Shown piece by piece: positions 2,389 to 55,173 of a stretch of 55,173 nucleotides of DNA. Each line of letters opens with the position of its first letter. Within the stretch, counting starts at the first letter, position 1. The notes beneath the pieces were generated by a model. It had not been told where the DNA came from. It did not search any database and saw only the letters and a program-made list of their open reading frames with translations. The stretch comes from a virus (lineage: Duplodnaviria; Caudoviricetes). The DNA is taken from the IMG/VR virus record IMGVR_UViG_3300043607_000025, positions 1 to 55,173 of that record. The stretch is one strand, 5' to 3'. A program made the position numbers and the translations under genes.

Positions 2389-2997
2389 TCAGTGCGCCTG
2401 CTCCTCGACCACCTTATACGTCGCCGGCGCGCCGCCGATGCCCGCTTTCTCCGCCTCCGCGCGACGCAGGCTTTCCGGCCTCAGGTCTCGGTCATCCTCG
2501 GCTTCCTTCAGCGGCTTAAACCCCCTCGCAAGAATCGCCTGCCCGGCGTCATAGCCGTCGATCCACCGTTGGTATTGTGGCACGGAAGGATCATGCGGCG
2601 GTTTGCGGGGTTCGTTTTCCATGCAAGCCCGTTTGCCATCGGCATAGGCGCGGTCAACCGACGGCGTGCGGTCCTCTGCGAAAAGCTCCGCTTGCGTGCC
2701 CATGGCCAATCCGAGCCATCGGGCAATACGCATCTGCGCCTCGATCTTTTCCTTGAGCTTCTCCTCGCCCTTCTCGTCCTTCAGCAGCGCCCAGGTGCGG
2801 ATATCGCGCACGGCGTGCTTGCCAAGCTTGGCCTTGGCCTCCTCCTCGACAATCGCAAGCGTGTCCTTCGCTGCTTGCCAGCGCTTGGCAAAGCCAAAGA
2901 AAGTCATCGCCTTGACGTCATCGTCTTGGTGATTGCCGTTCGTCGGCGGCAACGGGCCGCCGGTTTTCTCGCTCGCGGATTTTTTCGGGCGTCCCAT
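2389..2997 (-). CDS. Hypothetical protein; GapR/DUF2312-like middle and RMF-like C-terminal motif
   Basis: RBS GAGGAG before ATG 2997; EEEAKAK...ARWLGLAMG and DRAYADGKRA...QRWIDGY motifs, judged by eye. Confidence 0.6.
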   Translation of the reverse strand: MGRPKKSASEKTGGPLPPTNGNHQDDDVKAMTFFGFAKRWQAAKDTLAIVEEEAKAKLGKHAVRDIRTWALLKDEKGEEKLKEKIEAQMRIARWLGLAMGTQAELFAEDRTPSVDRAYADGKRACMENEPRKPPHDPSVPQYQRWIDGYDAGQAILARGFKPLKEAEDDRDLRPESLRRAEAEKAGIGGAPATYKVVEEQAH

Positions 2998-3007
2998 TGC
3001 GGTCTCC

Positions 3008-3643
3008 TCACTCTGCGCGATTGGATTTGGCGGCGATGCCTGGGCAGCACAGGGCAAAATGTTCGCCGCAGTAAGACCGGTTAGGCAGCGCCTCGGCGGC
3101 GCAAAACAAGAAGCTCTGTTCACCGTATGGATAACGGCAATCGCTCTCTTTGAGCTCGAAGAACTGCTTGGGCCGTCGTTGCTGTCTACGCGGGACCGCC
3201 TCGGCCGGGAGTTCGGCGGGGCTCTCGACCGGCGGCGCCGGCGGCCTCATCGGATCTTGCTTCAGTTTCCTGTTGATGCGGCCAGCGATGGTGTAATCGC
3301 CGCCGGCCTGGCGGGGCCGCGGCCTTGTCTTCTCCGGTTTCGGCCGCGCGGCGCGCGACAATCCGAGGCGGTGCGTTCGGCCGATCACGGCGTTGCGGGT
3401 GAGCCCGCAGTCGAGTTCGATGGCGATCTGGCTGGCAGACAAGCCCTCGGCGTGCAGACGCCTTAGGGCCTCGTCCCGCTCCGGGGTCCAAACAGTGCTA
3501 ATTCTGATTTTGTCGTGTTTCACATCGACAGCTTCAATACGAACGAACCGTTTCCATGAAAACAATCCAGCAGTAAGCGCAGCGGGGCTAAGCCCGTGCG
3601 GCTGCGCAACCCAGATCTGCCCGACTTCTGGAGCAACTTTCAT
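3008..3643 (-). CDS. gcrA: GcrA-family cell-cycle regulator
   Basis: WTPERDEALRRLHAEGLSASQIA...TRNAVIGRTHRLGL and C-terminal CRYPYG..FLFC...SYCGEH. Confidence 0.9.
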   Translation of the reverse strand: MKVAPEVGQIWVAQPHGLSPAALTAGLFSWKRFVRIEAVDVKHDKIRISTVWTPERDEALRRLHAEGLSASQIAIELDCGLTRNAVIGRTHRLGLSRAARPKPEKTRPRPRQAGGDYTIAGRINRKLKQDPMRPPAPPVESPAELPAEAVPRRQQRRPKQFFELKESDCRYPYGEQSFLFCAAEALPNRSYCGEHFALCCPGIAAKSNRAE

Positions 3644-4710
3644 TCCGCCGCCTCCATTGTTTCGGCTGTCTCGTTACCCCAGGCGTCCCACCCTGGTCGC
3701 GGCGGGCCACGCCGGTTTAATTCGATTTTGGGCATGGTCGGGTAATAGCCCTCTATCATTTCGAGGAAGCATTCAGGCTTGGCGGAATGCTCAGTCTTCG
3801 GCGCGATGATCAGTGACTCCCATTGCGTGCCGGGAGCCGGACAGGGCGGGTTACCGCGCGTGCCTATCAGCAGCAATTCATGCTTCGAGCGGTTCCAGCG
3901 GCCGGTGCTGATGCGATCCTTGCCCCAGCAGTAATTGGACTTGTATTTGAAACCCCAGGCTTCCAGTACACCAATCGCAATTCGCAAATGCTGATTGGTC
4001 GTCCATAGAAACAGCACGCAATCTTTTCCACTGATCGAAGGGACATCGCGCGCAGCGATCAACGCTGCATCACTAGTGGGATAATGATTAGAGGCATGAC
4101 GGTCCATACCTGTCTCTTCGCTCCACACCGTGTCTTTCCATTCCGGATCGGCGACGATCACCCCATATGTCTTGTCCGGCAATGCTCGCTGCTTTTCGCC
4201 GAGTGCCTTCTCGCGGTTTGCCCGCGCCGCTTTCTTGTCGCCCTGCGTGATCTCGCGCACTACCGCGGTGACGGTGGCGTCCTTACCCTGCTCGCGCAGC
4301 TTCTTGGCGACCGCCTTCAATTCGGCGGGCGACACGTCGGCGAGCTTGCCAAGCCGGTGGCGCGATGTCGGTTTGACGCCGGTAGCTTCGCGGCCCTTGG
4401 TGGATTTTCCCTGCGAGGAAAATCCATTCTTGCCCAACTGCCCGCCACCTTTTGCCTTTGGCACTCTCCGGAGTTCTTCGGCGATCCGCCGATTGCCGAT
4501 CAGGATCGCATCCTCGGCGGCAGCTTTGACCTCAGCGACATGCCCTAGCAATACGTTGATCGCTGTGGCCTCACGGATGATCTTACGAATATCATCGTAC
4601 GTCTTTGCAGCGATCAAATCGCGTTCCATGCGCCTCAGCGCTGCGAGAGCGGCAGGCACGCTCGGCACCTGCTTCCGGACGGCCTTGTCGAGCGACGGCA
4701 GGTTGCTCAT
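3640..4710 (-). CDS. MT-A70-family adenine methyltransferase
   Basis: YGVIVADPEW, LFLWTT, EAWGFKY, HELLLIGTRG, HSAKP, IELNRR, GWDAWGNE. Confidence 0.88.
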   Translation of the reverse strand: MSNLPSLDKAVRKQVPSVPAALAALRRMERDLIAAKTYDDIRKIIREATAINVLLGHVAEVKAAAEDAILIGNRRIAEELRRVPKAKGGGQLGKNGFSSQGKSTKGREATGVKPTSRHRLGKLADVSPAELKAVAKKLREQGKDATVTAVVREITQGDKKAARANREKALGEKQRALPDKTYGVIVADPEWKDTVWSEETGMDRHASNHYPTSDAALIAARDVPSISGKDCVLFLWTTNQHLRIAIGVLEAWGFKYKSNYCWGKDRISTGRWNRSKHELLLIGTRGNPPCPAPGTQWESLIIAPKTEHSAKPECFLEMIEGYYPTMPKIELNRRGPPRPGWDAWGNETAETMEAAE

Positions 4711-8739: not shown

Positions 8740-9624
8740 ATGAACACCGTGCTGCAAGATCGCATCGAACGGTTGCCTGCGATCAAGCTTTACAGCGGCT
8801 CGCACGAACCTCCGACAAACGGCATCCAAGCCTGCGCGATGGAATTGGTCTCCTGGATTGCCGGCGAACCGTGGTCAGCCCATCCCGAGTGCGCGTGCCC
8901 GGTTATTGGCTCGTTCATGCGCTCATGGAACGACGGGTTGCCCGACGATGAGCGCACCACCCTCCTCCTGCCGCTGATCCCGCGACTAGTCGGTACGCGC
9001 GGCAGCAAGGCGCTGGAGGAACGGCGCTCGCTGATGGCCGGCGATTGGCTGGTGCGGGTGAATACCCCGGCGTGGTTGCGATTGGTGGGGCTCACCGTGC
9101 ATGCCGACGCGCTCGCGTCACTTCCGGAGATTATCTCACTCAAACAAGTCCCGTCGATCAAAGGGCCGATTGAAGCCGCGCGTGTAGGTGCGGCCGCAGC
9201 GGGGGCCGCAGCGTGGGACGCAGCGTGGGCCGCAGCGGGGGACGCAGCGAGGGCCGCAGCGGGGGCCGCAGCGTGGGACGCAGCGTGGGACGCAGCGTGG
9301 GCCGCAGCGAGGGGCGCAGCGAGGGCCGCAGCGAGGGCCGCAGCGTGGGACGCAGCGTGGGACGCAGCGAGGGACGCAGCGTGGGCCGCAGCGTGGGACG
9401 CAGCGGGGGCCGCAGCGGGGGCCGCAGCGTGGGACGCAGCGAGGGCCGCAGCGGGGGCCGCAGCGGGGGCCGCAGCGTGGGACGCAGCGTGGGACGCAGC
9501 GAGGGCCGCAGCGGGCAAAAAACTATTGCCCGTCAAGGCCGAGCTACAACAGTCAGCGATCAAGCTGATCGAGCGCATGATTGCAGCCACGTCGGCCAAA
9601 GCATCCGTGGAGTTGGCACCATGA
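8740..9624 (+). CDS. Ala/Trp repeat protein (xAAx tetrapeptide repeats)
   Basis: [26 protein letters not shown]-terminus followed by 27 tetrapeptide repeats. Confidence 0.8.
9193..9516 (+). repeat. 27 x 12-nt tandem repeat G(A/C/G)CGCAGCG(T/A/G)GG
   Basis: Counted directly; in frame within 8740..9624. Confidence 0.95.
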
Positions 9625-44788: not shown

Positions 44789-44903
44789 GACTTGACGCGA
44801 CGCGACGTGACAAGACGCGAATAGACGTGGCGAGGCAGGGCAAGACACGGTAGGGCAAGGCAAAGGATGGCGGCCGAGATGTGTCCCAATCATTTCGGTC
44901 GCC
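44789..44903 (+). ncRNA. Candidate stand-alone guide-like RNA: 15 x (GAC/GGY)-NN array plus 3' hairpin
   Basis: Unbroken 5-nt period over 44789-44863; hairpin 44869-44903 with G-U pairs on the + strand, then a T-run. Confidence 0.65.
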
Positions 44904-44910
44904 ACTTTTA

Positions 44911-51462: not shown

Positions 51463-51801
51463 TCATCGTTTCAACCGTTGGACACGTACACGGAAGGTCT
51501 TGCGCTCGTGATGCGATGCACAAAGGACCATTCCATTATTAATATCAAATGGTTGACCACCATCCTTCAACTCTACTATGTGGTCAGCGTACACACGATG
51601 CTCGGGCCACGCCTTGGTGCACCTACGCCCATGTTCGTCCCGTGCCTCACACCTACGGCCTGCTCGGCTCGTGATCTCGGCACGCCAAGCTATGTACTGC
51701 GGGCTATTGTAGATCGGCTCGATCTGCTTGGGTGGTAGCTTGGTGGTTCTGGTGTCCACGGCCCGGATCACCGGGGTGATGCTGCGAACAACCTTGGTCA
51801 T
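51463..51801 (-). CDS. Packaging-associated HNH endonuclease
   Basis: RCE..C...ADHIVELKDGG..N..LCASHH..KT; upstream of terS. Confidence 0.85.
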   Translation of the reverse strand: MTKVVRSITPVIRAVDTRTTKLPPKQIEPIYNSPQYIAWRAEITSRAGRRCEARDEHGRRCTKAWPEHRVYADHIVELKDGGQPFDINNGMVLCASHHERKTFRVRVQRLKR

Positions 51802-51837
51802 GGCTGGATAGGCCCGCATGGCTGGATAGGCCCGCAT
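51799..51837. repeat. 18-nt tandem duplication CATGGCTGGATAGGCCCG
   Basis: Two exact copies plus CAT, over the HNH start. Confidence 0.8.
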
Positions 51838-51977
51838 TCGGCCAGGAAAGGCCGCTGGTGCGTTATTGTGGGGGGTAGGGGTGGAGTAGGCGCTCCAGCC
51901 CATTGAACCAGCCAGAGGCTGTTTTTTCTGTACCATAGTTTCACGATAAATCAATATTTGGTAATAATCTGTCGCCA

Positions 51978-52466
51978 CTACACCACCGGTACGCTTTGGC
52001 GGGTGAGTTCCATGGCAATGACGTGGGCTCCTGCTATGGCCCGACGGTAGAACGTGGACCGGGACCACCGGCGCAGCTTTAGCAGCCTGGACAGAGATCG
52101 CTGGTAGGCAGCAGCCGCAGCCAAATGGCTGAGGCACAGCCGTTCCTCGGGATATGGGGCCAAAATGGCGAGCCAGTCGTGCGCCTGTTCCATCCTGCTG
52201 ATATCGATGGAGGAACATCCAAGCCGCGCATTTTCCCAAGCATGAAATCTTTCCTTTCGATCGTCGTCCGCACGGCCAACGATGTCGGAAAATTCGGTCG
52301 CCATCGGTGGCCACGCGCTGGCAATCAACAAACGGCGGCGCGCGTGCGGCAACCGGCGCTCGACAGTGTAGGCCTCGACGAGCCGCTGCTGTACCCAGTC
52401 GGCGGACCATGCCGCTGGCGTGACGGCGCGGGATGCGTCGATCGCGATGGTGCTCAGGCGGGGCAT
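51978..52466 (-). CDS. Putative late-gene regulator (DUF6362-like)
   Basis: W..DWV..RL.EA..ERRLP; C-terminal SRSTFYRR HTH-like; last early gene before an AT-rich late promoter region. Confidence 0.6.
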   Translation of the reverse strand: MPRLSTIAIDASRAVTPAAWSADWVQQRLVEAYTVERRLPHARRRLLIASAWPPMATEFSDIVGRADDDRKERFHAWENARLGCSSIDISRMEQAHDWLAILAPYPEERLCLSHLAAAAAYQRSLSRLLKLRRWSRSTFYRRAIAGAHVIAMELTRQSVPVV

Positions 52467-52473
52467 CGTTGCA

Positions 52474-52986
52474 TCACGCGGCGGCGGGCGGGACTGCTGC
52501 ATTGCGCGGTGGTGGTTCCTTCTGCGCCATTGTTTGCAGCCGGCCAAGCAGCACCATGGTCGCGTCGAGCGCGGCTTGGAGTTCGTCTTCGAGATCCAAC
52601 GCCTTCGCTACATTTTGCGCGCGCTCGAAGATGGATCGCACGCGCTCCACCTCGGCCGCCAATACATCGGCGGATGCGCTTTCCTCGGATCGGATTCGAG
52701 CGATAGCACGATAGCCTTGGAGCGGAGCCACATCGGGGTCGCGGACATATCCCACGACCGAGAACTTTTGTTTTTCGACCGTCATCACCACACGCACACT
52801 TGAGATCAAATGGCGGGCTTGGTCGAGCCGGTAGTTGGCGGCGGCCTTGGTGTTGTCCCACTCGAAATCCTTGTGCAGCGGGTGCTTTGGATTGCGGGCG
52901 GCTTCGACGACGTGGGTCGGCGTCAGGCAGCCGTGCTTGTTCTCCAGCGCGCGGAGGGCGGCGATTTTGACTTTCATGCTGCTCAT
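52474..52986 (-). CDS. Putative accessory protein of the RAMP/repeat locus
   Basis: LTPTHVVEAARNPKHPLHKDFEWDNTKAAANYRLDQARHLI; GGAG RBS just after the array hairpin. Confidence 0.75.
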   Translation of the reverse strand: MSSMKVKIAALRALENKHGCLTPTHVVEAARNPKHPLHKDFEWDNTKAAANYRLDQARHLISSVRVVMTVEKQKFSVVGYVRDPDVAPLQGYRAIARIRSEESASADVLAAEVERVRSIFERAQNVAKALDLEDELQAALDATMVLLGRLQTMAQKEPPPRNAAVPPAAA

Positions 52987-53005
52987 TGATTGCTCCGTTG
53001 CGAGG

Positions 53006-53032
53006 GCCGAGACCGGGGTCTCCGATCTCGGC
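53006..53032 (-). other. 11-bp hairpin at the 3' end of the repeat RNA
   Basis: GCCGAGATCGG-agacc-CCGGTCTCGGC; one pair is U-G on the minus strand only. Confidence 0.75.
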
Positions 53033-53043
53033 TTTGTTGTTTG

Positions 53044-53301
53044 GTCACGTCAGGTCTCGTCAGGTCACGTCTGGTCGCGTCACGTCACGTCTCGTCGGGT
53101 CGCGTCACGTCGTGTCATGTCACGTTGGTCTTGGCTCGTCGTGTCAAGGCCCGTCAAGTCGCGTCACGTCACGTCTTGTCGTGTCACGTCTCGTTGGTCT
53201 TGGCTCGTCGTGTCAAGGCTTGTCGCGTCGCGTCACGTCTCGTCAGGTCAGGTCTAGTCCGGTCAGGTCTAGTCCGGTCTAGTCCTGTCCCGTCACGTCC
53301 C
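53044..53301 (-). ncRNA. Candidate guide-RNA array: 50 x NN-GAC units in three blocks (21/13/16) split by CAAC
   Basis: Parsed base by base: 46 GAC and 4 GCC constant triplets; starts 2 nt after the RAMP-like stop codon. Confidence 0.75.
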
Positions 53302-53303
53302 GA

Positions 53304-54146
53304 TTACTTCGCACCAACACCGTTGCCGATGTGCTCCTCGCCCGGCAGCGGTGGTATTGCTGGCTTCTTTCGCTTCGTGGATGTTGCCGGCCGCGCCACG
53401 CGGGTCACCTGCTCGGCCAGGAACCGGGTCAAGAGGTTTTCGGTCTCGCGGTCGTAAAACTGCGGATCGGCGAGCGCATTGTCCTGCGCCTTGGTGGCTC
53501 CGAGCTTGACGATCTCGTGCCATTCCCGGTCGTCCTCCGAGCACACCCGCCAGCAGCCGAATGCCATCTTGCCTTTTTGTGGCCGGCCGTCGCCGACGCC
53601 GATGATGATGCCCGCAGCACCCAGTAGGTTGCCGACCGATTGAGATTTGATCAGAGCTGTTGGAAACATCACGGTGATCCTGGTGGCCCATCGCGGAAGG
53701 ATGGGAAGCGTCCGCACATCCGGCGTGCGCTTCATGTCACTGGAGCGAACGATGGTGCTGTAGATCTGCGGCACACCCCAGACCGGGATCTTGAGGCCAG
53801 GCACGCGCGTGAGCCGGCCGATCTGCGACTTGGTCGCGCCGACGATGTCGATGGCAACGTCGGCGATCGCCGCATGGAAGCTGCCGGCCGGCATGTACAG
53901 CCGCGTCGGCGCATTGTCGTCGTCGCGGAATTGATAGGCGGCGTCGCGGAACTCGTCGAACGGCTCGTGTTTCTTCGACGATGCACGCTCGGCCGCGTTC
54001 TTCCGGCCGGGTGGGTCCAACAGCGCTCCGGCCGCCTTAGCGCTCACGGCATGTGGCACAAGCGGCGATGTGCCGACGAGACAGAAATCCATGCTCGTCA
54101 TTTCGATTTCGGTGATTGTGATGTTGGTTTCCTGATTTTTAGCCAT
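53304..54146 (-). CDS. Stand-alone RAMP/Cas7-like protein
   Basis: Beta-1 LVGTSPLVPH, LYMPAGSFHAA, R..P....W strand, C-terminal Gly-rich loop AGIIIGVGDGRPQKGKMAFG. Confidence 0.7.
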   Translation of the reverse strand: MAKNQETNITITEIEMTSMDFCLVGTSPLVPHAVSAKAAGALLDPPGRKNAAERASSKKHEPFDEFRDAAYQFRDDDNAPTRLYMPAGSFHAAIADVAIDIVGATKSQIGRLTRVPGLKIPVWGVPQIYSTIVRSSDMKRTPDVRTLPILPRWATRITVMFPTALIKSQSVGNLLGAAGIIIGVGDGRPQKGKMAFGCWRVCSEDDREWHEIVKLGATKAQDNALADPQFYDRETENLLTRFLAEQVTRVARPATSTKRKKPAIPPLPGEEHIGNGVGAK

Positions 54147-54179
54147 TCGCGAACTTCCTTTGTTGGGTTGGTGGGGTGC

Positions 54180-55173
54180 TCATGAGTAAGCCCCGGTGTC
54201 GTAATCCGTTGACCGATATTTCCCCGTCGCGAGGTTGTATTGGAGGCCGAGTTTGCAGGGGTAACCGAGTTCATCGAACCGGGCCTTGCGGTGGTAGAGC
54301 ACAGCCTCGGTCTTGCGGTTCACACCGTCGAAAATCTCAGGCCGGTGCACGACGAAGCCCTGGTCGACCATATTTTCCCAATGTTTGGCGCCGGCGATGT
54401 CTTCGAGGCCTGGGGGCCCGCCGCGCCGATTGCCATCCATTTTTGCTGGGTGAGCTACGATCTGGACGTGGCAATTCATGTCATTCGCGAACACGTACAT
54501 CGCGCGCAGGCAGCGCGCGATGTACTCATCCTCGCGTTCGTTTCGCTCCCGCGAACCCTCGAGCCTATTCCAAGGATCGAGCGTGATCACCTTGGCACCA
54601 TGGCGCACGATGGCGATTTCGGCGAGGTCCAGGAACCATTCGAGAGTTTGTCGGTGCTCTGGGTGGACGGCGAAAAGGTAGTGCTCGTTGATCCAGCCGT
54701 CGGCCTTGCGCTTGTCATCGTCGTCAAGATCGCGCTCGTGCCTGCCCATGATGAGCGTACGAAGTTGTTTGCGCATGTGCGGCTTCGGCCGTGTCTCGAA
54801 GGTCGCGGCGAACAACACCAGGCGATAGGCTTGGATGATCTGAAACCAGATTTGCGTCCAGAGCATTGTTTTACCCATGCCAGCGTGCCCGGTGACGACG
54901 GAAAGCGTACGCGGCGCGAGCCTGATTTTGCTTTCCCACTCCGAAAATCCTGGGTCCCACAGTGTCAGCGCTGGGGGCTCGGGGAGTTCGCCGAGGCGGT
55001 AAAGCCCGGCGACTGGCCACTGCAGCGACCCTTCGGTTACGAGGTCGCGTAGGTCGCGCGCGCCTTCGGTGCGCAGGACATCGTTGGCGTCCTTGCAGCC
55101 TTCCGGCCAATCGACAAACCAGAACCGTGCCGCACCGAGTAACCTGGCCATGTCAGCGCGGAGTGACAGGCCG
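54180..55173 (-). CDS. Primase-helicase, 3' part (SF4/Twinkle-like helicase)
   Basis: KDAND (Toprim), Walker A TGHAGMGKT, Walker B VITLDPWN, VAHP, IAGA. Confidence 0.88.
   Translation of the reverse strand, partial: GLSLRADMARLLGAARFWFVDWPEGCKDANDVLRTEGARDLRDLVTEGSLQWPVAGLYRLGELPEPPALTLWDPGFSEWESKIRLAPRTLSVVTGHAGMGKTMLWTQIWFQIIQAYRLVLFAATFETRPKPHMRKQLRTLIMGRHERDLDDDDKRKADGWINEHYLFAVHPEHRQTLEWFLDLAEIAIVRHGAKVITLDPWNRLEGSRERNEREDEYIARCLRAMYVFANDMNCHVQIVAHPAKMDGNRRGGPPGLEDIAGAKHWENMVDQGFVVHRPEIFDGVNRKTEAVLYHRKARFDELGYPCKLGLQYNLATGKYRSTDYDTGAYS
54983..55173. repeat. Terminal direct repeat, right copy
   Basis: Matches 1-191 with one mismatch. Confidence 0.95.

Follow-up and report, generated by a model that had tools for sequence, protein, structure and literature searches.

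Results

Organization of the locus

The window, that is, the whole 55,173-nt stretch of viral DNA analysed here, carries terminase, capsid, portal, tail, and integrase genes and contains, on its minus strand, two genes separated by a period-5 repeat array, together with a second, solitary array on the plus strand. The features are as follows (the basis of each assignment in parentheses).

52483..54157, minus strand: whole VIPR cassette (vipr, vrRNA array, hairpin, vap), 1,675 bp, a discrete accessory insertion
53304..54146, minus strand: vipr, encoding a 280-aa minimal RAMP of the Vipr family, L147/G187 clade (ORF list, profile, fold)
53195..53299, minus strand: vrRNA-like tract a, 21 pentamers (19 GAC-NN, 2 GCC-NN), ending in GAC-CA and then AC (parse, runs)
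53126..53190, minus strand: vrRNA-like tract b, 13 pentamers (11 GAC, 2 GCC) (Tandem Repeats Finder, parse)
53042..53121, minus strand: vrRNA-like tract c, 16 GAC-NN pentamers, ending in GAC-CA-AAC (runs, parse)
53006..53032, minus strand: hairpin with an 11-bp stem, after tract c and 20 nt ahead of the vap start (fold)
52474..52986, minus strand: vap-like gene, 170 aa, helical, no known family (ORF list, homologs)
44789..44863, plus strand: solo vrRNA-like array, 15 pentamers (8 GAC, 5 GGC, 1 GAA, 1 GGT) (run search, parse)
44862..44909, plus strand: strong hairpin, then CUUUUAUU (fold)

The initial annotation had described a compact co-oriented cassette of a 280-aa gene, an array, a hairpin, and a 170-aa gene, all of which were found, on the minus strand. 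Its statement that the array starts 2 nt past the stop of the first gene is correct when counted by the period (~2 nt), but not from the first full GAC (4 nt), and the neighboring gene named there a late regulator exists, but is only a DUF6362 protein by family match. The absence of cas genes and of a CRISPR array, also claimed there, was confirmed: no cas-like gene was found among 45 ORFs scanned against PHROGs, the whole 55-kb window contains no CRISPR-type array, and scans of the window for Rfam families and tRNAs gave 0 matches and none, respectively.

Tandem Repeats Finder delimited the main array as a period-5 array at 53043-53300, within which an exact-run search found three perfect GAC-NN tracts of 16, 8, and 16 units on the minus strand. 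Parsed frame by frame, the array comprises 50 units (46 GAC-NN and 4 GCC-NN) in blocks of 21, 13, and 16, each finishing in GAC-CA-AC, and 14 of the 16 possible dinucleotides are used at the NN position, as counted by hand from the parsed units. The pattern GACNNGACNNGACNNGAC has 34 matches as against 0.01 expected, and 0 of 100 shuffles reached 34. Other period-5 runs of at least 4 units, of any trinucleotide, were absent from the 55 kb except at 44789-44818 on the plus strand. The last five units of tract b are the same as those of tract a, owing to a 69-nt duplication. A conserved 29-nt stretch of the array was considered as a tail hairpin, with G-U pairs favoring the plus strand, and was rejected, the parse resolving it into in-frame GCC/GAC units duplicated within the 69-nt repeat. 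A single SNP was seen in the DNA runs, at an NN position (53266), which is anecdotal.

The hairpin downstream of tract c has a predicted folding energy of -21.4 kcal/mol on the minus strand (z -4.3), and the only T-run near it lies on the plus strand. Lacking a U-run on the sense strand, it resembles a 3' cap or processing element more than a strong terminator. No sigma-70-like promoter was detected near the main or the solo array.

The cassette is an accessory (indel) module, with an exact presence/absence polymorphism between close, near-identical soil phages. In a relative phage locus with 94% nucleotide identity to the window in the helicase (L134), the cassette is absent and the sequence corresponding to window position 54158 directly abuts that of 52482, and another close relative (L135) carries other cargo at the same insertion site. 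The same DNA is present in soil metagenomes from 18 studies, the cassette being identical in many independent ones.

Vipr and Vap proteins

VIPR (Viral Interference Programmable Repeat) systems, described in 2026 preprints and divided there into seven types, consist of a Vipr protein, a vrRNA of GGY/NN repeats, and a Vap protein, as exemplified by the type II system of Escherichia phage SUSP1 (PDB 36pp) (10.64898/2026.04.26.720920; 10.64898/2026.04.26.720927). The initial annotation had pointed to such preprints on GGY-NN repeat RNAs; they exist, and the mechanism they describe is the one it had inferred, each subunit gripping the constant triplet and displaying the variable dinucleotide. Its proposal that the present system is a VIPR relative with GAC as the constant motif is also supported, in that GAC occupies 46 of the 50 units and SUSP1 Vipr (36pp_D) is the sole PDB sequence match of the family profile of the 280-aa protein (E 3e-5). 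A broader profile again retrieved SUSP1 Vipr as the sole PDB match (E 1.2e-8), and the aligned stretch spans the thumb strand and the G-loop. The protein also matches phrog_4652 in PHROGs, whereas it belongs to no family in Pfam, NCBIfam, or PADLOC (the last given the two cassette proteins only), and a tblastn search against cultured phages returned nothing at E<=1e-3.

In the AF2 model of the 280-aa protein (pLDDT 83.6), the 15 Foldseek matches with E<=1e-3 were without exception CRISPR Csm, Cmr, or gRAMP (Cas7-11) effector chains, and rows 1-27 of VIA-align contained CRISPR RAMPs only, with Z scores from 8.4 to 5.9, so that the RAMP/Cas7-like fold suspected from the letters alone is borne out by the model. 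The landmarks picked out by eye are likewise present, namely G25..P28 L29..H32 in beta-1 and the glycine-rich loop G183-V-G-D-G-R-P189. The residues equivalent to those contacting G1 and Y3 in SUSP1 Vipr, the G-loop, and many further columns are invariant across 31 homologs.

The 170-aa protein, which had been taken for an accessory component, is indeed conserved with Vipr: 108 of 126 Vipr loci encode a homolog on the vipr strand, and in 101 of these the homolog lies downstream. It matches phrog_15946, and its AF2 model (pLDDT 85.9) has no Foldseek match in the PDB at E<=1e-3, where no sequence match was found either. Pfam, NCBIfam, and PADLOC contain no family for it, some NCBIfam matches having been dismissed as weak and far below the cut-off, and its atlas matches are viral hypothetical proteins only.

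Repeat motif and pocket residues in related loci

Among the 126 loci with a Vipr homolog, 62 were classed by the presence of at least 8 exact units within 2.5 kb, as expected if period-5 arrays accompany the homologs as well. On the gene strand, the arrays are GGN in 58 loci (45 GGC, 10 GGT, and 3 GGA) and GAC in four, the window, L131, L132, and L051, the last of which, having only 4 exact units, was a manual assignment; among the classed loci, GAC-NN is confined to the clade of the window. In L131/L132 and L051, as in the window, vipr is followed by an array with GACCAAC separators and then by vap; in L052 the order is vipr, vap, array.

In the cryo-EM structure of SUSP1 Vipr, G1 of the repeat is contacted by H17 and D177, G2 by R138 of the thumb and W178 of the G-loop, and Y3 by R179 (10.64898/2026.04.26.720927). 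The R138 column is R in 58 of 58 GGN loci and L in the GAC loci and L052, and the W178 column is W, F, Y, and G in 39, 13, 2, and 4 of the GGN loci, respectively, and G in the GAC loci and L052. In the clade of the window, R138 is replaced by L147 and W178 by G187 (window numbering), with D186 and R188 unchanged and H32 kept, the correspondence of H17 with H32 coming from a weak N-terminal alignment. Thus, A (not G) occupies position 2 of the handle and both residues cradling G2 are replaced, so that pocket and handle have changed together. The nearest outgroup (L120) has H32, H91, and P148 in common with the clade, yet retains R147 and W187 and has GGC arrays. Four GGC loci combine G187 with R147, and the W-to-G change alone therefore leaves the handle unchanged. 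The clade with L or V at position 147 and G or A at 187 comprises 111 of 246 aligned sequences. The co-change took place once, in a monophyletic clade with a local support of only 0.32 at its most recent common ancestor; it is consistent with coupling but amounts to no statistical proof of it.

Strand of the RNA

Read on the gene strand, units that deviate from the consensus and lie between G.C units retain G at position 1 and vary at position 3. The counts of GNT versus ANC are 23:1 in L131, 16:1 in L051, and 7:2 in L052, that of GNR versus YNC in L052 is 18:0, and 31 canonical GGC loci used as a positive control gave a like asymmetry (44:2 and 44:10). Judged from the repeats themselves, this asymmetry puts the predicted RNA on the gene strand. 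Both downstream hairpins, of the main and the solo array, are more stable on the GAC-sense strand. L052 and L034 were initially scored as GGC on the other strand; for L052 this was rejected, as its GACCAAC junctions are oriented as in the window and L131 and its position 1 is an invariant G on the gene strand.

Solo array

The solo array, which is absent from the initial annotation and was found in addition, is intergenic, lies downstream of the portal gene, and is antisense to the flanking genes; in relatives without it, the portal stop joins the next gene almost directly. The hairpin following it (-26.8 kcal/mol, z -3.9 on the plus strand; -16.4 kcal/mol, z -1.5 on the other) likely acts as a terminator of the solo RNA or as its 3' cap.

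Targets and RNA traces

For the four window guides, a search by the 1-nt skip rule over the window and 231 loci (2.08 Mb) found no target above shuffled controls, and neither did a search with 51 guides of the clade allowing skips of 0, 1, or 2 nt over 2.1 Mb. One soil metatranscriptome contains contigs exactly matching 52916-53066, 53301-53452, and 53500-53656 (parts of vipr and the array-vap junction), which are assembled, strandless, and of low depth, leave most of the array uncovered, and may derive from DNA carry-over.

Discussion

The results described above make it very probable that the locus in this soil phage is a phage-borne VIPR system of a non-canonical dialect. In common with SUSP1 VIPR, it is a minimal two-gene locus with a homologous solo RAMP and an accessory gene, has arrays built of 8-21 pentamers in which three bases are constant and two hypervariable, carries several guides per array and a separate solo guide, and conserves the residues equivalent to those contacting G1 and Y3 in SUSP1 Vipr, the equivalence of H32 being weakly aligned; its tracts of 21, 13, and 16 pentamers compare with 9-16 units per guide in described VIPR arrays. 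It differs in the handle, which is GAC and not GGY, in the replacement of both G2 contacts, and in the length of Vipr (280 aa, with an additional C-terminal helical part, as against 202 aa in SUSP1). Between the guides lie GAC-CA-AC junctions at which the frame slips by a single base, whereas SUSP1 VIPR uses a pseudoknot tail, and the Vap is an unannotated helical protein different from that of SUSP1. The founding VIPR paper admits "a related consensus" besides GGY, and a language-model survey lists, in the part of its text available, 21 of 99 period-5 clusters as non-GGY, "e.g. GAC/NN or CAC/NN", beside Vipr-like folds (10.64898/2026.10.21.760802), a description that the window fits. GAC therefore departs from the canonical motif only, not from the family. 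To the extent of that text, the GAC-NN form of VIPR is already known from the preprint, which gives motifs and folds, while the residue-level explanation, the strand test, the junctions, and the cassette boundaries come from the present analysis, the pocket change being the added insight.

The best structural matches of Vipr are Csm3/Cmr4 of the Cas7 family and Cas7-11, which share with it the RRM core, the thumb hairpin, and the glycine-rich loop, although sequence similarity to them is undetectable. RAMPs of the Csm3/Cmr4/Cas7 type assemble into polymers along the guide RNA with a constant step, as is also stated in the VIPR papers. Unlike CRISPR type III systems, the window has no CRISPR array, cas genes, or 5' repeat handle, and the step is 5 nt with three bases sequestered in VIPR, as compared with 6 nt and one flipped base in CRISPR type III.

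Referring to SUSP1 VIPR, from which we infer by homology the transcription, processing, filament formation, DNA silencing, 1-nt skip rule, and identity of the target, the following mechanism is predicted. The cassette would be transcribed from the minus strand with the early/replication genes, and the array would yield three guide RNAs (vrRNAs) of 21, 13, and 16 pentamers, parted at the conserved GAC-CA-AC junctions, each of which shifts the frame by one base. Each pentamer would then be bound by one Vipr protomer to build a helical filament, in which H32 and D186 may read G1, and C3 may be accommodated in a pyrimidine pocket with R188. The variable dinucleotide of every unit would be shown to dsDNA for gapped pairing with a 1-nt skip, thereby silencing a competitor element, presumably with the assistance of the 170-aa Vap.

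An RNA transcribed from the opposite strand, with GUC-NN units and guides antisense to the operon, would account for the symmetry of GAC/GTC at positions 1 and 3 and for the sole T-run terminator-like site near the main array being on the plus strand, and it is not opposed by any promoter, none having been detected on either strand. This is nevertheless quite unlikely: an invariant G at position 1 and a Y-like position 3 are seen on the gene strand alone, just as in the canonical control loci, the arrays lie within co-oriented operons, between vipr and vap, and the hairpin of the solo array folds with 10 kcal/mol greater stability on the GAC-sense strand, where a U-run follows it. It is hardly credible that the locus is decaying or has become an inactive relic, in which a Vipr devoid of guide-binding residues stands beside a drifting repeat, or that the repeat acts as DNA (iterons or protein-binding sites). 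There is no direct sign of function, the target scans were null, and two contact residues are missing, but the ORF is intact, the conservation across the 31 homologs includes the G1/Y3 contacts and the G-loop, the clade sharing the L147/G187-type replacement has 111 members among the sequences examined, the constant triplets are perfect in the exact tracts, the cassette recurs unchanged in independent soil metagenomes, and the architecture is kept in L131, L051, and L052.

The alternative closest to the VIPR reading concerns the handle itself: in the same system, position 2 may simply be unread, the pocket having been lost rather than retuned, and the uniformity of GAC may result from array duplication. 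L052 has the L147/G187 signature and yet contains 116 GCC and 43 GTC among its 196 interior units, L131 has 11 GGC and 9 GCC among 137 interior units, and GAC and GGC are mixed in the solo array of the window. The GCC/GUC units of L052 and the mixture in the solo array indicate that the pocket may be permissive at position 2 and not A-specific; uniformity within an array might then come from duplication, of which the 69-nt repeat inside the main array is an instance. On the other hand, GAC makes up 46 of the 50 window units and 87 of the 137 interior units of L131, even though NN is hypervariable, whereas duplication by itself would homogenise NN too, and G at position 2 is rare in the main arrays of the clade. 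On balance, we regard an unread position 2 as possible but doubtful.

With a similar degree of reserve, we speculate that the L147/G187 clade represents a natural orthogonal dialect of VIPR, which, with both G2-cradling residues exchanged and A at position 2 (C/U in L052), would use its own guides only and would not recognise GGY guides, among them the solo or hijacking vrRNAs of rivals. The solo array of the window, combining GAC and GGC, could serve as a bilingual guide for both dialects. If the dialect is real, VIPR conflicts would have an arms-race axis in the co-evolution of handle and pocket, and two programmable DNA binders that do not cross-talk would be available ready-made.

The RNA-guided DNA binders of the VIPR class have been described only recently and have been proposed to be older than CRISPR. 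Their non-canonical GAC/NN form is cleanly exemplified in nature by the present locus, which also points to the residues that may set handle specificity; a swap of two residues and one base might generate orthogonal Vipr-guide pairs, and bears on how rival phages might escape cross-loading of each other's guides.

The same Vipr-Vap pair is found in a cultured phage, Mycobacterium phage Quico (NC_028751), as genes 57-58. This homolog was reached only via vap, QUICO_58 matching the window vap, and QUICO_57 aligned with the Vipr profile with an hhalign probability of 99.8% (E 1.6e-29). Quico has a GGC-NN array with one-base slips, which lies upstream of vipr, and its Vipr keeps the R and W of the pocket (GVGDWRP); Vipr, Vap, and the array are annotated there as hypothetical or not at all. 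Cultured mycobacteriophages such as Quico are thus bench-accessible carriers of the Vipr-Vap pair.

A VIPR locus with a non-canonical handle

The results support the assignment of the cassette between the helicase and DUF6362 genes to VIPR, in a non-canonical GAC/NN form, and supply a specific, testable explanation for its altered handle, that is, the three constant bases of the repeated pentamer (GAC here, GGY canonically; the two NN bases vary). In the available text of the preprints dating from April–June 2026, a VIPR locus encodes the minimal RAMP Vipr, an accessory protein (gene vap), and vrRNAs of 9–16 YNNGG repeats, each bound by one Vipr protomer that sequesters the GGY bases, while the NN bases pair with DNA, every third target base being skipped, to silence competing phages or satellites; in the solved SUSP1 Vipr of an Escherichia phage, H17 and D177 read G1, thumb R138 and G-loop W178 flank G2, and the Y3 pocket includes R179. 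Seven types are named in the same text, along with "a related consensus", arrays staggered by overlaps of one base, and the alternative repeats NNNGG, YNNNG, and NNNNG (10.64898/2026.04.26.720920; 10.64898/2026.04.26.720927). An October 2026 preprint, as far as its text was available, describes a VIPR role against satellites, solo vrRNAs, vipr-vap deletions, and the requirement for Vap1 along with Vipr in natural SUSP1 infection (10.64898/2026.10.15.759431).

The window is the entire virus record (55,173 nt, G+C 62%). The compact cassette of a 280-aa gene, an array, a hairpin, and a 170-aa gene, noted in the initial annotation, was confirmed:

54180-55151, minus strand: primase/helicase (phrog_239)
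53304-54146, minus strand: 280-aa ORF (vipr)
53042-53299, minus strand: period-5 array
53006-53032, minus strand: hairpin
52474-52986, minus strand: 170-aa ORF (vap-like)
Beyond the vap-like ORF, in minus sense: DUF6362 protein, HNH endonuclease, then small and large terminase, capsid, portal, and tail genes
44789-44863, plus strand: solo array of 15 units (8 GAC, 5 GGC, 1 GAA, 1 GGT)

Because an integrase, a RecT/exonuclease pair, and an HTH regulator are also encoded, the virus looks like a temperate siphovirus, and the likeness of the large terminase to its counterparts in Labrenzia phage vB_LagS-V1 and Agrobacterium phage Rivra (about 51% identity) tentatively suggests an alphaproteobacterial host. 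Soil metagenomes of 18 studies contain the cassette DNA. The actual starts of the HNH and DUF6362 genes differ from those of the longest ORFs, that of DUF6362 being probably the ATG at 52466. Elsewhere, a 12-nt tandem repeat, GGCCGCAGCGTG (9192-9513; 26.8 copies, 90% matches), which would give a four-residue protein repeat, lies within a 294-aa ORF of unassigned function (8740-9624, plus strand), and an exact 18-nt tandem duplication (51799-51837; 2.2 copies) precedes the HNH domain of a 315-aa ORF (51463-52410).

The 280-aa protein is a Vipr-type RAMP

The 280-aa protein matches no family in Pfam, NCBIfam, or PADLOC, and nearly all of the 296 homologs obtained by database search are unnamed. 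A profile of 31 homologs gave a single PDB match, "SUSP1 Vipr protein" (36pp_D, E 3e-5), again the sole PDB match (E 1.2e-8) when relatives at 25% identity were added, in support of the possible VIPR relationship raised in the initial annotation. The RAMP/Cas7-like fold proposed there was likewise borne out: the AlphaFold model (pLDDT 83.6) resembles Csm3, Cmr4, Cas7-11, and type VII Cas7 in Foldseek, where every one of the 15 matches at E≤1e-3 is an effector chain of Csm, Cmr, or gRAMP (Cas7-11), and in VIA-align against 48,161 chains the first 27 rows are all CRISPR RAMPs (top Z 8.4, residues 13-205).

Arrays in the window

Tandem Repeats Finder detected period 5 and its multiples across 53043-53300. 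An exhaustive search of the whole window for runs of any trinucleotide plus two free bases found three perfect GAC-NN runs on the minus strand (16, 8, and 16 units) and only one other such run, at 44789-44818 (plus strand); GACNNGACNNGACNNGAC has 34 matches versus 0.01 expected. Read in frame, the main array has 50 units (46 GAC, 4 GCC) in blocks of 21, 13, and 16. The GAC-NN array and its constant motif both stood up to scrutiny. Every block terminates in GAC-CA-AC(A), followed by a one-base frame slip, and 14 of 16 dinucleotides are represented at NN. The only base difference across the cassette in other soil metagenome contigs, G>A at 53266 (plus strand, one run), lands on a variable NN position.

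The solo array is followed by a strong terminator-like hairpin and CUUUUAUU, the whole element (44789-44909, plus strand) being inserted between portal and the following gene, in antisense orientation to each. Array and hairpin are missing from relatives; in one of these (L152), the next gene begins almost directly after the portal stop.

Handle types among relatives

Of 133 fetched loci encoding relatives, the homologous ORF was recovered by script in 126. Arrays were classed from exact runs of ≥4 units within 2.5 kb totaling ≥8 units, loci short of exact units or of flanking sequence being excluded; period-5 arrays adjoin the homologs in the 62 loci so classed. The gene-strand handle is GGC in 45, GGT in 10, and GGA in 3. 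It is GAC in four: the window, L131 together with L132, which nearly duplicates it, and L051, a manual assignment made on reading the locus, in which just 4 units are exact; these are the closest relatives of the window (62–63% identity).

L052 and L034 were scored as "GGC on the other strand". The gene-strand units of L052 are GCC (116) and GTC (43) of 196, with GACCAAC junctions oriented as in the window. This vrRNA-like array of about 2 kb (2560-4700, about 200 G[C/U]C-NN units) follows vipr and vap, is broken by a small ORF (3973-4214), and accompanies a Vipr sharing L147/G187 (window numbering) with that of the window.

Strand of the guide RNA

The motif alone cannot give the strand, because GAC and GTC mirror each other at positions 1 and 3. 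We counted non-consensus units having in-frame G.C units on either side: RNA from the gene strand should keep position 1 fixed as G and vary among pyrimidines at position 3, and RNA from the opposite strand should do the reverse.

Non-consensus units on the gene strand
L131: GNT:ANC 23:1; GNR:YNC 4:0
L051: GNT:ANC 16:1; GNR:YNC 7:1
L052: GNT:ANC 7:2; GNR:YNC 18:0
Control, 31 canonical GGC loci of known sense: GNT:ANC 44:2; GNR:YNC 44:10

The asymmetry of the control is the same as that in L131, L051, and L052; an earlier, noisier control, which took in flanking coding sequence, gave 214:87. Both array-trailing hairpins (main and solo) fold more stably on the GAC-sense strand, and in L131 and L051 the arrays lie between co-oriented vipr and vap.

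Co-change of the binding pocket and the handle

Column comparison showed that few sites discriminate the 4 GAC from the 58 GGN proteins. Position 147 is L in the GAC clade and R in 58/58 GGN proteins; position 187 is G in the clade and W (39), F (13), Y (2), or G (4) in the others. Since these positions align with SUSP1 R138 and W178, both G2 contacts (HMMER alignments to 36pp_D), D186 and R188 (SUSP1 D177 and R179) are conserved, and there is a weak alignment of H32 to H17, the G1 and Y3 readers appear to be retained and both G2 readers lost, the RNA handle being altered at position 2 only. L120, of the sister group, has H32, H91, and P148 as in the clade, but R147/W187 and GGC arrays. Because G187 is paired with R147 in four GGC loci, it is the R-to-L change at 147, not W-to-G, that always accompanies a non-GG handle.

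In a FastTree phylogeny, the L/V147 sequences form one clade (111 of 246 aligned sequences), whose common ancestor has a local support of only 0.32, the next node above having 1.0; H-L-G occurs in 101 of 120 listed protein clusters. As the association of pocket and handle derives from a single evolutionary event, it is suggestive and does not amount to a statistical test. Judging from the GCC and GTC units of L052, position 2 within the L147/G187 clade can be A, C, or U, and the pocket may be permissive there and not A-specific.

The GAC dialect is already in print at survey level, because a further preprint lists, in its available text, 21 of 99 period-5 clusters with non-canonical motifs, "e.g. 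GAC/NN or CAC/NN", adjoining Vipr-like folds (10.64898/2026.10.21.760802). In the portions available, the string GAC is absent from the main text of 10.64898/2026.04.26.720920, and R138, W178, and GAC are absent from 10.64898/2026.10.15.759431. The available VIPR preprint text, wider literature aside, contained no residue-level account of replaced G2 contacts with G1/Y3 kept, strand test, GAC-CA-AC junctions, within-clade variation at position 2, or exact cassette boundaries.

Targets and transcripts

No guide targets above shuffled controls were found in the window and related phage loci (about 2.1 Mb), either with the 4 window guides under a 1-nt skip or with 51 guides of the clade under skips of 0, 1, and 2 nt. 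Exact, strand-less contigs from one soil metatranscriptome cover 52916-53066, 53301-53452, and 53500-53656, compatible with transcription, or possibly with DNA carry-over.

Presence and absence of the cassette, and the accessory gene

In L134, a relative phage from a 52-kb IMG/VR contig matching the window in the helicase (94% identity) and DUF6362/HNH region (87%), the base at window 54158 abuts that at 52482, exactly 52483-54157 being missing; the cassette behaves as a separate accessory unit. Among 98 loci collected around homologs of helicase, portal, and RecT, none encodes a Vipr. The close relative L135 has other cargo at this site (L135 10990-15300), and the helicase–DUF6362 junction resembles an accessory-gene hot spot. 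This cargo includes an HTH_3 regulator, a HicA toxin, a HicB-like antitoxin, and several unknown ORFs.

The 170-aa protein, for which a mostly helical structure is predicted (pLDDT 85.9), matches no PDB fold at E≤1e-3 and no PDB sequence; in the Atlas, its look-alikes are viral hypothetical proteins only. In 108 of 126 loci, a homolog is encoded on the vipr strand, in 101 of them downstream, at a distance of mostly ≤100 nt, or of about 1 kb where an array lies between; of the 18 loci without it, 4 have <300 nt of downstream flank. In the cultured mycobacteriophage Quico (NC_028751; locus L232, 1490-2941), a GGC-NN array that carries one-base slips and no annotation lies upstream of a gene pair annotated as hypothetical: QUICO_57, a match to the Vipr profile (hhalign 99.8%), and the vap-like QUICO_58. 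Vap is matched by 33 phage records (Mycobacterium 27, Gordonia 5, cyanophage 1).
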